A stretch of 34,187 nt of DNA from Deinococcales bacterium. Its GTDB lineage: Bacteria; Deinococcota; Deinococci; Deinococcales; JAAFIG01. This document shows positions 9,676 through 34,151 of this stretch, piece after piece. The notes beneath the pieces are model-generated. The model saw nothing but the letters and a program-made list of their open reading frames with translations. It ran no database searches and was not told where the DNA came from. The stretch is taken from contig JAYWGM010000031.1 in NCBI GenBank assembly GCA_043778225.1, positions 1-34,187 of the forward strand, read 5' to 3'. A program made the translations under genes and the position numbers. Position 1 is the stretch's first letter. Each line of letters opens with the position of its first letter.

Positions 9676-9762
9676 CTCTGAAAGCAGGGTAATGACAAGC
9701 ATCACCCCTACAGAAAAACGATTTTTGTAGGGTGCGAACCTTGTGTTCGCCCCGCTAAAAAT
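9676..9762. repeat. GTAG-family REP doublet (REPIN-like), uninterrupted allele
   Basis: Inverted REP AGCAGGGTAATGACAAGCATCACCCCTAC (9683-9711) and REP GTAGGGTGCGAACCTTGTGTTCGCCCCGCT (9727-9756); homologous to the reverse complement of 33370-33510. Confidence 0.8.
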
Positions 9763-9844
9763 GAACGATTTGGACTTATGTAAGAAGTCTAATTGCTTAA
9801 ATCGAAACAACATGACTCGAATCATAACTGGTTAAACTAGGTCT

Positions 9845-12909: not shown

Positions 12910-13127
12910 GTCCTCCCCTGTCGTTAGACAGTTGGGAGGTCTCACGAGCGACCCAAGCGACCATGCCCGAAGGTGCGTGTCTATGGTCAAGAAGCCCGCA
13001 GGTGCTGCTGTAGTGGTCAAGAAGTGCAACGAGTGACGGAGGGGTCTGCGGCGCGTAAATGAAGAGACGCTGTGCAAACCCCTCCGACGCGCTTCGCTTG
13101 CCACCTCCCCTGTTTCGCGTGGAGGAC
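12910..13127. mobile_element. MITE-like non-autonomous inverted-repeat element carrying nested insertions
   Basis: Terminal IR GTCCTCC (12910-16)/GGAGGAC (13121-27); inner IRs GGGAGGT/ACCTCCC and CGGAGGGGT (13037-45)/ACCCCTCCG (13078-86); AAAAA on both flanks (12905-09, 13128-32); no coding capacity. Confidence 0.7.
12949..13024 (+). mobile_element. Two nested copies of a 37-39 nt hairpin micro-element
   Basis: Copy C, CGACCATGCCCGAAGGTGCGTGTCTATGGTCAAGAAG (12958-12994), splits copy D, CGACCCAAG|CCCGCAGGTGCTGCTGTAGTGGTCAAGAAG (12949-57 + 12995-13024); same family as 33389-33464(rc). Confidence 0.75.
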
Positions 13128-32507: not shown

Positions 32508-33331
32508 TCATTGCCTTGCCGGGTACTCCACTTAAATAAGGCAGTCAGTATCCAATTGGTTGGATTTTCTAGTAATACAGTCGTTAGCTCGAGTAACCGC
32601 AACCACCACGGCGCAACTCGAGATGGCTGATGCACAATCGCGTAAGCAATCACTTGGGCTGCCTCGAGTGGGCTGAGGGCTGGGGCATTGGCAAATTGCT
32701 TAGCAGAACTCATGCGGGTGCGAACCAGTGGCATATAAAGGCTCGAGACCAGAATTTTTTGTGGGCGCAATTCGTTGCCTAGGCTACGTAACCACAAGTC
32801 AAAACCGGCTTTGCTGCTCTGGTAGGCTGCCCACATCGGTATGCCAGTCAATCGGGCAGAAATCGTCGAGACGTTGATTATCTGTGCGCCGCCCTGCTCG
32901 AGCATTTGCGGTAAAAGTGCCAGAATCAGGCTGCTTGGACTCGAGAAATTTAGTGCAATAAGCCGTTCAAGGTCGTTATGTTCGAGCGAATGTGTCATGC
33001 GTCGGCGAATGCTTTTCCCTGCATTGCAAATCAGAATATCTATCCGTGGATGCTCGAGTTGAATCTGAGCCATCAGTATTTTAACCGCCTCGAGTTGGCT
33101 CAGGTCTATTGGATAGATAAACGCCATCGTACTAATGGTTTTTTGAAGCGCCTCGAGTTTACTTTTGGTTCGCGCAAGCAACACAACTTTTGCACCCGCT
33201 CGAGCCAAATAGAGCGCCGTGGCTTCTCCGATGCCATAAGTTGCACCCGTTATCAAAATGGTTTTGCCATCAACCGCTAAGCCAAGTTTCTCGAGACTGG
33301 TCTCTTTGGGTGGCGCAAGCAGACTGAACAC
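32504..33331 (-). CDS. SDR oxidoreductase resembling Acr1-type fatty acyl-CoA reductase
   Basis: TGATYGIG, NAGKSIRR, YQSSK, YMPLVRT.M; ATGA-coupled to the acyl-CoA synthetase. Confidence 0.8.
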   Translation of the reverse strand: MFSLLAPPKETSLEKLGLAVDGKTILITGATYGIGEATALYLARAGAKVVLLARTKSKLEALQKTISTMAFIYPIDLSQLEAVKILMAQIQLEHPRIDILICNAGKSIRRRMTHSLEHNDLERLIALNFSSPSSLILALLPQMLEQGGAQIINVSTISARLTGIPMWAAYQSSKAGFDLWLRSLGNELRPQKILVSSLYMPLVRTRMSSAKQFANAPALSPLEAAQVIAYAIVHQPSRVAPWWLRLLELTTVLLENPTNWILTALFKWSTRQGND

Positions 33332-33369
33332 AAGTCAGAGTTTACTCGAGTTTAAGGCACTTGAAGCTT

Positions 33370-33510
33370 ATTTTTAGCAGGGCGAACACTTCTTAACCAT
33401 AAACTCGCACCTAACGGGCATGGTCGCTTCTTGACCATAAACTCGCACCTAACGGGCATGGTCGCAAGGTTCGCCCCTACAAAAATCGTGGTCATCACCC
33501 TGCTTTAGAG
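33370..33510 (-). repeat. GTAG-family REP element interrupted by two micro-elements
   Basis: rc reads CTCTAAAGCAGGGTGATGAC..ACGATTTTTGTAGGGGCGAACCTTG[76-bp insert]TGTTCGCCCTGCTAAAAAT, matching 9676-9762 once the insert is removed. Confidence 0.85.
33389..33464 (-). mobile_element. Two tandem 38-nt hairpin micro-elements
   Basis: rc CGACCATGCCCGTTAGGTGCGAGTTTATGGTCAAGAAG then CGACCATGCCCGTTAGGTGCGAGTTTATGGTTAAGAAG, one mismatch apart; homologous to 12958-12994. Confidence 0.8.
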
Positions 33511-33562
33511 CTTTAAGTATCTCCCACCTACATTTTAGAATTTTCAAAAAGCGTCAATTCTG

Positions 33563-33592
33563 TTCTTGCTCGTAAAATAGCACCTCACGGGC
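33563..33592 (-). repeat. Diverged fifth copy of the micro-element core
   Basis: rc GCCCGTGAGGTGCTATTTTACGAGCAAGAA keeps GCCCG-NN-AGGTGC-N11-CAAGAA. Confidence 0.55.
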
Positions 33593-33686
33593 TACTCGCG
33601 CTCATTACGGCAGCAGATACGCTGTCCCTACTCCCGTTGGTCGGAAATGTTTTAGCGAAGAACTCTAAAACATTTCGGGGTTGTAC

Positions 33687-34151
33687 TTAGAATACAGGTG
33701 TAAAAACAAAACGGTCGGTTGCCCCACCACGTAAAACACAATCGGTATGCTCACCAAGATAACGTTTGTCCATGACGCTCTCGAGTGCGCCCCAGACTGC
33801 CCCAAGCGTAAACGTGCATTTGCGGCTCGAGCCTTGTGGTTCGTTGGCACTACAAACGGTCTCGAGGGTGTCAATAATAATTTGTTCGCCCTGAACACTT
33901 GCACCGACCACACGGCAAAGTTGTGTACCGGTTTTACCAAGCAGCCCATCCAATGCCTTCACCAGCACTTCGACAGGTGCTTTTGTGCCGACTAAGCCAG
34001 CTTGTTGCGCCACGGTATTGCCACGCACTTTACCAGCCCGAATAAAAACCACCGCCGCGCCATCTTCGCCCAAGGTATCTTCGACCCCGACAATGGCTGC
34101 CTTAAAGCAAATCAGGCTCATCATTTCGCCAAGTTCTGGTCTGACATTCAT
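33687..34151 (-). CDS. V4R-like (hydrocarbon-binding) domain protein
   Basis: G...G helix; E..CS, CTFTLGAVWGALE, H..CVLRG...D.F.F pattern; AAGGAG RBS. Confidence 0.7.
   Translation of the reverse strand: MNVRPELGEMMSLICFKAAIVGVEDTLGEDGAAVVFIRAGKVRGNTVAQQAGLVGTKAPVEVLVKALDGLLGKTGTQLCRVVGASVQGEQIIIDTLETVCSANEPQGSSRKCTFTLGAVWGALESVMDKRYLGEHTDCVLRGGATDRFVFTPVF

Follow-up and report, generated by a model that had tools for sequence, protein, structure and literature searches.

What is a tandem pair of 38-nt sequences doing in the loop of a REP hairpin when the same REP lies uninterrupted elsewhere on the same contig? The window considered here, 34,187 nt in length, is one whole contig of a 4.03-Mb draft genome (107 contigs, 89% complete), and its locus at 33370-33510 raises three questions in turn: whether the insert is genuine and belongs to a family, how such inserts come to lie where they do, and which enzyme might move them. 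We find that the feature is real. Very small mobile repeats, the choice of REPs by IS110 elements and the mosaic repeats of D. radiodurans were already known; a search of open-access full text and bioRxiv did not find a self-nesting hairpin family of 35-39 nt in Deinococcota together with an IS110 guide that tracks its loop variants and a repeat inside a bridge-RNA gene. The SDRs of Nostoc raised the question of how repeats shorter than a pair of transposase binding sites are copied, and the Deinococcota lineage is a second, independent system for very small mobile repeats.

The doublet and its empty counterpart

On the minus strand, sequence and fold place the left half of the REP, GATTTTTGTAGGGGCGAACCTTG, at 33465-33487 (its 33480-33465 part being GTAGGGGCGAACCTTG) and the right half, TGTTCGCCCTGCTAAAAAT, at 33370-33388 (its 33388-33376 part being TGTTCGCCCTGCT). 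Between them lie two 38-nt units in tandem, unit 1 (CGACCATG..GGTCAAGAAG, 33427-33464) without mismatch to the family pattern and unit 2 (GGTTAAGAAG, 33389-33426) with a single mismatch (C>T), each identified by pattern and fold; unit 1 reads GCG.. once the G at 33465 is added. The same REP, GTAGGGTGCGAACCTTG|TGTTCGCCCCGCT, runs uninterrupted on the plus strand at 9727-9756, with the equivalent insertion point between 9743 and 9744, and the copy at 9720-9768 folds with -10.7 kcal/mol (z -5.1). This bears out what a first-pass annotation of the sequence had reported, namely an insertion exactly in the hairpin loop with no loss of host bases and an empty allele within the window. The empty loop CC-TTGT-G (GCGAACC-TTGT-GTTCGC) is found in identical form in four REP copies genome-wide, the one at 9727-9756 and three others, and two more REPs carry other loops. 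When the window was searched with the 37-nt unit pattern, allowing up to three mismatches, two matches were obtained against 0.00 expected from 100 shuffles.

The stems that had been proposed for the unit, an outer GACCAT/ATGGTC and an inner GCCC/GG-T-GC with a bulged T, are also those of the minimum-energy DNA fold predicted by ViennaRNA. With DNA parameters a doublet unit reaches -5.0 kcal/mol (z -2.2), a value that 5 of 200 shuffles equal, and the predicted fold of the unit, taken alone, is weak.

Could the 76-bp doublet be an artefact of assembly? The draft state of the genome and the frequency of contig breaks within these repeats speak for such a scenario. Against it, the Logan contigs of a public sequencing run, perhaps that of the source sample, yield three overlapping pieces, spanning 33200-33425, 33398-33456 and 33445-33556, that agree with the window at every position, a comparison made at the level of contigs rather than reads; the second piece, at roughly twice the depth, bridges the junction between the two units. 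No joints were seen in the contigs of that run. Moreover, the doublet-filled REP is present at C31, C52 and C98; at C98 the two units are identical to each other but belong to another variant, with loop GATA and spacer GCGTTT. This recurrence of the doublet-in-REP layout at two other loci, one of them with a different variant, likewise argues against an artefact, which we regard as highly improbable.

A family of hairpin units in a Deinococcota lineage

The core GCCCG-N1-3-AGGTGC occurs 131 times in this genome, and 119 times when the tail CAAGA is required as well. As had been proposed from the window, these copies make up a genome-wide, non-coding family of very small repeats with exact ends, many filled/empty pairs and members inside other repeats; 15 of 118 copies fall within proxy genes, defined as ORFs of at least 200 aa and covering 78% of the genome. 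The strict pattern matches all 18 of the other genomes of the taxonomic family, which span five genera, with between 1 and 316 matches each. In 22 genomes of four sister families there are 0-2 matches, and a reversed-pattern control gives 0-1. In 150 further genomes of the phylum matches are mostly single and do not resemble the family. The repeat family is thus spread through a Deinococcota lineage, across one taxonomic family.

A variant, AGCGGGCAG-GCCCGnnAGGTGC-CGYTCTGCCC-AAGAC(A)G, is present, among these 150, in three genomes of one genus (8, 9 and 3 matches) and in one genome of another. BLAST with this variant returned seven plasmid records, from Deinococcus psychrotolerans, D. wulumuqiensis, D. 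sp. QL22 and D. peraridilitoris; D. radiodurans is absent among the plasmid records listed, and matches outside Deinococcus are all partial, with E values of at least 2. A plasmid search with the window's doublet as query gave no match. The first-pass annotation had drawn its parallel with Nostoc-type cyanobacteria, a setting that does not hold here: this genome has no PsbA/PsbD (Photo_RC) and only 11 HIP1 sites, and its RecA scores best among solved structures against PDB chain 1xp8 (546 bits, versus 450 for the next single-copy RecA chain), which we take to be D. radiodurans RecA, so that the setting is that of Deinococcota and not of cyanobacteria, in line with the occurrence of the variant in named Deinococcus plasmids.

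Members of the family share a layout: GCG is followed by an arm of 4-7 nt, then by the inner hairpin GCCC-G(N0-2)A-GG(T)GC, ~6 nt of spacer and the arm's complement, and the unit closes with CAAGA plus 1-3 nt. Measured from GCG to AAGA, units are 35-39 nt long (mode 37), and conservation is concentrated in the 5' GCG, the 3' CAAGA and the inner hairpin, GCCC paired with GG(T)GC around a bulged T. The rule that the inner loop starts with G and ends with A was upheld in 115 of 120 copies when the loop was left unconstrained. A G precedes the CG (position -1) in 117 of 118 copies, and hosts without a G at the insertion point reveal that this base belongs to the unit. One sub-type, GCGCGAGTA..TACGAGC, keeps a tandem G.A/A.G mismatch in its stem; it is represented in the window by a unit at 33563-33601 on the minus strand (GCGCGAGTA-GCCCGTGAGGTGC-TATTTTACGAGC-AAGAA), inserted at CGTAATGA|CAGAATTG of a longer dispersed repeat, with 2-5 empty paralogues. 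That host, ~180 nt long and located at 33514-33690 (minus strand), has many copies in the genome and genus, often at contig ends.

The unit hairpin is under selection for pairing. Across the family, 81.5% of outer-stem cells are paired, compared with 66.7% (sd 1.3, maximum 71.7) in 500 partner shuffles, and arms are swapped in compensatory fashion both in the units (GACC/GGTC, GCCC/GGGC, GAAC/GTTC, GATT/AATC) and in the Deinococcus variant (GGGCAG/CTGCCC, GGACAG/CTGTCC, GTGCAG/CTGCAC, GGTCAG/CTGACC). Chimeric units with mismatched arms also occur.

How do these units compare with repeats known from elsewhere? SDR1-8 of Nostocaceae, reportedly described by Elhai et al. in 2008 (Genome Res 18:1484), are said to have units of 21-27 nt against 35-39 nt here, a comparison made by description. 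We know of no enzyme for either SDRs or the present units. Like SDRs, our units are dispersed, do not code for protein, are very small and can form hairpins, and they insert precisely into short repeats and into each other; unlike SDRs, they reside in Deinococcota rather than Nostocaceae, and a specific IS110 element with a guide RNA is tied to the unit. Precise insertion of SDR5 within HIP1 is described in a part of PMC4390886, and an excerpt of PMC5861425 reports no SDR-like repeat outside Nostocaceae among HIP1-rich cyanobacteria. The SNRs of D. radiodurans (Makarova et al. 1999, 2001) resemble the units, by description alone, in being dispersed non-coding repeats of the same phylum; a passage of PMC1978522 gives 295 SNR copies of at least nine types with an 'unusual, mosaic structure'. 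With REPs and REPINs the units share short length, intergenic location, imperfect palindromes and copy numbers in the hundreds.

This last resemblance suggests a scenario in which the units are REP-like elements used by the host, whether to bind a protein, to stabilise RNA or as a terminator, and in which IS110 elements exploit an abundant, harmless site. Consistent with host use, two taxonomic families keep the same core and layout, arms covary and copies are strongly intergenic; in addition, IS110 elements are known to choose REPs (PMC11208160, in part), and a target stem-loop can add specificity according to a section of 10.64898/2026.03.19.712850. Yet self-nesting, described below, destroys the hairpin of the host copy, and the presence of copies in arrays and within other parasites gives a selfish impression. 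Moreover, Rfam holds no matching family (window at the gathering score, IS locus at E<=1), and a function as binding site or transcript is putative. Keeping in mind that host use would be compatible with mobility, we consider it unlikely as the explanation of the family.

Precise insertion, nesting and junctions

Using 9-nt exact anchors to call filled/empty pairs, we found an empty paralogue for 58 of 118 copies. Of these pairs, 23 are precise and non-tandem, 17 are blurred by divergence between paralogues and 18 lie in arrays or repetitive hosts; sites with several empty paralogues include CCGACTAA|AAGGAGTG, CCGACCAA|CGGGAGTA and the CGTAATGA|CAGAATTG site mentioned above. Microhomology of 1-4 nt at the junction is seen in every precise pair (A, AA, CAG, G, GG, TTG, AGAA, AAGC), and the 1-3 nt past CAAGA often equal the bases to the left of the insertion (CAG/CAG, GAG/GAG, TTG/TTG, AGG/AGG). 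The window's doublet is an exception, its left flank ending in TTG and its tail in AAG. The initial claim that insertion proceeds without target duplication is therefore not borne out as stated: the microhomology in all 23 precise pairs makes the absence of a duplication indistinguishable from a duplication of 1-3 nt, and neither zero duplication nor a fixed duplication fits every junction. Nor do the units look like MITEs, as GCG.. at one end and ..CAAGA at the other do not form inverted repeats and the microhomology, at 1-4 nt, is not fixed. At position -2, copies as tabulated have A in 68 cases, G in 20, C in 20 and T in 10; re-reading the rows of the GCGCG sub-type lifts A to about three quarters. 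In seven genomes of the same genus no orthologous empty site was obtained, the flanking genes being 70-79% identical and non-syntenic and the intergenic DNA different.

Among the hosts are REP-type hairpins of at least five kinds, entered in their loops, as well as 8-mer arrays (GGTTAAAA)n, a MITE of ~150 nt, the ~180-nt repeat at 33514-33690 and the family itself, with seven copies in 8-mer arrays, 17 as tandem neighbours and 13 in the family's own loop. One and the same unit type occupies hosts of more than 10 unrelated kinds. Entire units, their ends fixed, have been inserted many times into unrelated sequences.

Insertions into the family itself follow an AG| at any of three places: within the loop (GNNAG|GTGC), at the boundary between 5' arm and core, and after the spacer (TTTAG|GGTC). 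The second position is exemplified in the window, on the plus strand, by a unit at 12957-12993 (GCGACCAT..GGTCAAGAA) that differs from the doublet unit at several positions (loop GAA, spacer GTGTCT) and is nested in a second family unit at 12948-13023, whose 5' arm GCGACCCAA lies at 12948-12956 and whose core to tail follows at 12994-13023. The host of this copy had been described at 12958 as unrelated; it is, instead, another copy of the family, interrupted where the 5' arm meets the core. Nesting reaches three levels, and since identical nests recur at several loci (C39, C85, C101, C26) composites must be copied too, so that copies are not independent events.

Do units prefer hairpin loops, as the doublet suggested? 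For several REP types the preference is clear. Genome-wide, a crude test that compared predicted hairpin loops with nearby control positions placed 26 of 75 other-host sites (35%) in loops versus 27% of controls, so that the suggestion stands for those REPs and is not convincing as a general rule.

Given such copying of composites, we might ask whether the units are mobile at all at present. The pattern could, in principle, reflect hitch-hiking, tandem amplification and gene conversion, with some 'empty' sites having arisen by deletion between microhomologies. Identical nests and identical MITE positions at several loci would fit this model, as would the 1-4 nt of microhomology in every precise pair, the chimeric units with mismatched arms, and the fact that units are identical within an array while arrays differ from one another. 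However, the same two ends appear in more than 10 unrelated hosts, which include the leader of an insertion sequence and a transposase gene on a Deinococcus plasmid; deletion would not take out exactly one unit each time; and 100-300 copies family-wide need repeated insertion. We consequently find it improbable that the units lack mobility of this kind.

We favour, as probable, a reading in which the family spread by precise insertion of whole units, mostly into other repeats, the units being non-autonomous and moved in trans. Units would enter intergenic DNA and mainly other repeats there (REP loops, 8-mer arrays, MITEs, their own hairpin), would then grow locally into tandem doublets or arrays, and would ride along when their hosts are copied. 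A trans-acting, site-specific enzyme may recognise the conserved junction CAAGA-(N)AG|CGAC, and the hairpin points to a possible single-stranded intermediate; an enzyme that handles a single strand would explain why the hairpin matters.

An IS110 element in the unit loop and the search for a mobiliser

When split units were parsed, a triple nest on C26 turned out to hold an insert of 1,163 bp in its innermost loop; an identical nest on C101 is empty. The insert is an IS110 element (C26:30449-31610) encoding a protein of 336 aa with DEDD_Tnp_IS110 (PF01548, 3.3e-23) and Transposase_20 (PF02371, 4.2e-18) domains. This genome carries one copy, and homologues are present in 8 of 19 genomes of the taxonomic family (9 of 19 for the Pfam family). 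At all 12 loci seen, in eight genomes, the element sits in the inner loop of a unit. Its left ends abut GCCCG-N2-3-AG and its right ends GTG(C/T) in 10 of 10 readable cases each; seen from the transposase strand, the arrangement is GCAC|CT..IS..CTG|CT-nn-CGGGC, with CT as the core.

The leader of the element, ~145 nt from the IS end to the start codon, is predicted across 10 copies to form a stem of 13 bp that surrounds an internal loop bearing a small hairpin, and compensatory changes are seen at 6 of the 18 predicted pairs. One side of the internal loop, GCACCT, equals the left part of the target plus the core, and the other, GUCCGnnAG, is CT-nn-CGGGC in reverse complement, one G.U pair included. 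The variable nn(n) of this guide matches the loop of the occupied unit in 8 of 8 readable loci, for which five variants were reported (TAAG, TTAG, GAAG three times, TCAG twice, ATAG). The layout is like that of IS621 bridge RNA's target-binding loop, in which, as set out in part of PMC11208160, the left guide is target-sense and the right guide complementary, both including the core. In a second leader loop, GAACGGCUGCCU resembles the IS end ACACGGCTG|CT, and UUUGCAAG is CT|TGTAAG in reverse complement, wobble pairs included; this second loop would fit a donor-binding loop. Judged from these matches, the element appears to target the hairpin loop of the unit through a bridge-RNA-like guide.

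With a DEDD RuvC-like domain, a Tnp domain, a CT core and a leader loop that matches the target, the element has the hallmarks of the IS110 family. It is like IS621, ISPpu9 and ISPpu10 in domain make-up (DEDD and Tnp), CT core, lack of target duplication and hairpin-repeat target, and its leader, like a bridge RNA, contains an internal loop both sides of which match the target; REPs are favoured targets of IS110-family elements (portions of PMC11208160 and PMC12288879). A resident guide RNA that would read the repeat loop, track its variants and share the insertion bond gives a concrete handle on unit mobility, a question that can be reduced to a recombinase, a bridge RNA, a unit array and a target.

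Before considering whether the IS110 machinery moves the units as well as targeting them, we turn to the enzyme class that had been put forward initially. An HUH (Y1) transposase, either IS200/IS605 TnpA or RAYT, might move units as single-stranded DNA by reading an imperfect hairpin and cleaving on both sides of it. The unit has properties that recommend this model: its hairpin is imperfect and conserved, with a bulged base and covarying arms; fixed terminal motifs flank it on both sides; there is no long target duplication; and Y1_Tnp genes are present in 16 of 19 family genomes. Other observations weigh against it. The sole Y1_Tnp of this genome belongs to an ordinary IS605 with tnpB whose end hairpins (CCCCTAGCTTTAGCTATGGGG) are unlike the unit, the sequence fetched around 26 of 30 Y1_Tnp loci in the family contains no unit core, and G010 (91% complete, 98 pattern matches) shows no Y1_Tnp. 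Furthermore, the unit has one hairpin rather than a left-end and right-end pair, which also sets it apart from IS200/IS605 derivatives (PATE). REPIN-type inverted doublets are absent, doublets and arrays being direct tandems, and in contrast to REP/REPIN-RAYT systems the unit has no GTAG head, nests in itself and was not found to flank any RAYT. We therefore think it rather unlikely that an HUH enzyme is the partner. A reverse transcriptase had also been suggested as partner: the only one found in this genome has an AAA_21 ATPase and a DUF4276 gene as neighbours, a defence-type setting.

Within our overall reading, according to which units are moved in trans, an IS110-type bridge recombinase is the leading candidate mobiliser, although we hold this possibility tentatively. 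Nested units and the element share one bond, GCCCGnnAG|GTGC; AG (CT) is prevalent at both unit junctions; and units are inserted in the element's own putative donor-loop DNA. The ends of unit and element also resemble each other weakly (left, CGACCATG versus CAGCCGTG, 5/8; right, AGAAG versus ACAAG, 4/5), and the unit matches the donor-side guides of the leader partially. Against the candidate, the unit junction matches the IS donor weakly (left, ATGGTCG versus ACGGCTG; right, TCTTGAC versus TGTAAGT), and most unit targets (REP loops, 8-mer arrays, MITE sites) are unlike the target encoded in the leader; because arms differ between sub-families, one guide could not read them all. The recombinase was not found in 10 of 19 draft genomes of the family, which also counts against it; this genome being an 89% complete draft, insertion sequences may be missing. 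Mean strict-pattern matches are ~164 in the nine genomes with IS110 and ~100 in the 10 without, a difference that is not evidential as the genomes are related and incomplete. The tie between any enzyme and the units is positional.

The candidate also draws on what is known of related elements. According to part of PMC11208160, IS110 elements choose REP targets, use a CT core and can make do with a 22-bp donor when bridge RNA is supplied in trans. Preprint passages (10.64898/2026.08.31.748434, 10.1101/2025.10.25.684509) describe single-stranded circles, copy-out and 'half-match' insertion. That IS110 machinery can carry a non-autonomous passenger is indicated by MITEPpu9, a MITE tied to an IS110 element in an excerpt of PMC12288879; the present unit is ~10x smaller than MITEPpu9.

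The association between unit and element runs in both directions. At GAACGGCT|GCCT, in transposase orientation, 7 of 10 leaders (six genomes, three genera) carry a unit of 39-40 nt; one leader has two units in tandem, three are empty, and two sub-types are found at the same site. By sequence, the inserted unit lies inside the presumed left donor guide. As the unit ends in ..TCGCT, the bases at the leader junction (GCT|GCCT) are restored, and with at least two unit-bearing IS copies at different loci of G016 the insert seems compatible with transposition. Such leaders, with a 39-nt insert in the donor loop, and the natural series of re-programmed bridge-RNA guides bear on guide evolution and on the tolerance of the loop.

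A more far-reaching version of the IS110 scenario, and one that we consider doubtful, would make the unit the smallest known passenger of a bridge-RNA/IS110 system, copied out as a single-stranded hairpin circle and engaged in a reciprocal relationship with the element. The circle would form via the conserved CAAGA-AG-CGAC junction and be pasted beside AG (CT) sites, with the loop read by the IS110 guide as its preferred landing place. The element would, in turn, land in the unit loop, while the unit would have settled in the donor-binding loop of the element's bridge-RNA gene, where it may contribute both a guide-like version of its own end and a duplicate of the IS target.

A motif scan revealed no orphan bridge-RNA-like genes in this genome, which, like the single IS110 copy, speaks against the candidate. 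Elsewhere in the family, the IS110-type genes at G014:C655 and G004:C319 have no unit core nearby, and the IS110 relatives of G087 target a different site.

Guides and units in the IS110 leaders

A leader with a bridge-RNA-like target loop (L100:1567-1711) lies directly upstream of the transposase start codon in the IS110-family element that is inserted in a unit's inner loop on contig C26 of the Deinococcales genome G000, and the same arrangement is found at nine homologous loci. At eight of eight loci the right guide of this leader, GUCCGnnAG, is the loop variant of the repeat that the element occupies; the right guides of the IS110 leaders are a natural series of re-programmed guides. IS110 relatives with 47-49% identity are present in another genus (genome G087: L168, L171, L173, L174), where the leader guide segments GAACTACTCT and GTTTTGAG fit those relatives' own, different target, TACT-CT-CAAAAC.

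Seven of the ten leaders themselves hold a unit of 39-40 nt, placed between GAACGGCT and GCCT within what is presumed to be donor-binding loop DNA. These units belong to two sub-types, and the leaders that bear them (L111, L110, L113, L107, L109, L108 and L118) come from six genomes. The transcript of such a leader would include a copy of the IS110 element's own target sequence.

Units as hosts, guests and chimeras

The inner loop of the unit is also occupied in G000 by other small elements of 173-177 nt (C1:31492-31703; C29:3002-3209), one of which has the inverted ends TAAGTATCTC..GAGGTACTTA. Mobile DNA of several kinds thus lands in this loop. Units are in turn inserted into other repeats. 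One host (G000 C98:44440-44680; C58:20390-20586; C36:100-320; C71:1-200) is a MITE-like repeat that measures about 150 nt and has ATACCAAATT..AATTCGGTAT as its inverted ends; in it the insertions fall at two or three fixed positions and the hot-spot sites are empty in about 16-20 copies. Tandem arrays of 8-mers (GGTTAAAA, GGTAAAAA, GGTCAAAA), which are common in the intergenic DNA of G000, often serve as hosts too (for example C48:78230-78330 and C28:82330-82400). On a D. psychrotolerans plasmid (L193, NZ_CP034186.1:396494-397370) a variant unit lies inside a transposase gene, which the annotation splits into three fragments.

Some units pair the 5' arm of one sub-family with the 3' arm of another, for example GACCAT with AGGGTC (G000 C48:88972-89048; C32:25690-25760), a pattern consistent with units having recombined, or converted one another, at the conserved core.

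A reverse transcriptase locus and an iterated palindrome

The sole reverse transcriptase of G000 (L102, C65:8296-11742) adjoins an AAA_21 ATPase gene and a DUF4276 gene, an arrangement that looks like a defence system.

CTCGAG occurs 24,877 times in the 4.03 Mb of G000, about 25 times the expectation, with an example at 33340-33350 of the window. No publication on CTCGAG or the decamer GGCTCGAGCC was found in open-access full text or bioRxiv. Like HIP, CTCGAG/GGCTCGAGCC is an iterated palindrome, but one that lies outside cyanobacteria: the decamer is present in all 19 genomes of the family at 131-505 copies per genome, and three sister families include some genomes with 112-484 copies, with only 0-2 copies in the three genomes sampled from the genus Deinococcus.
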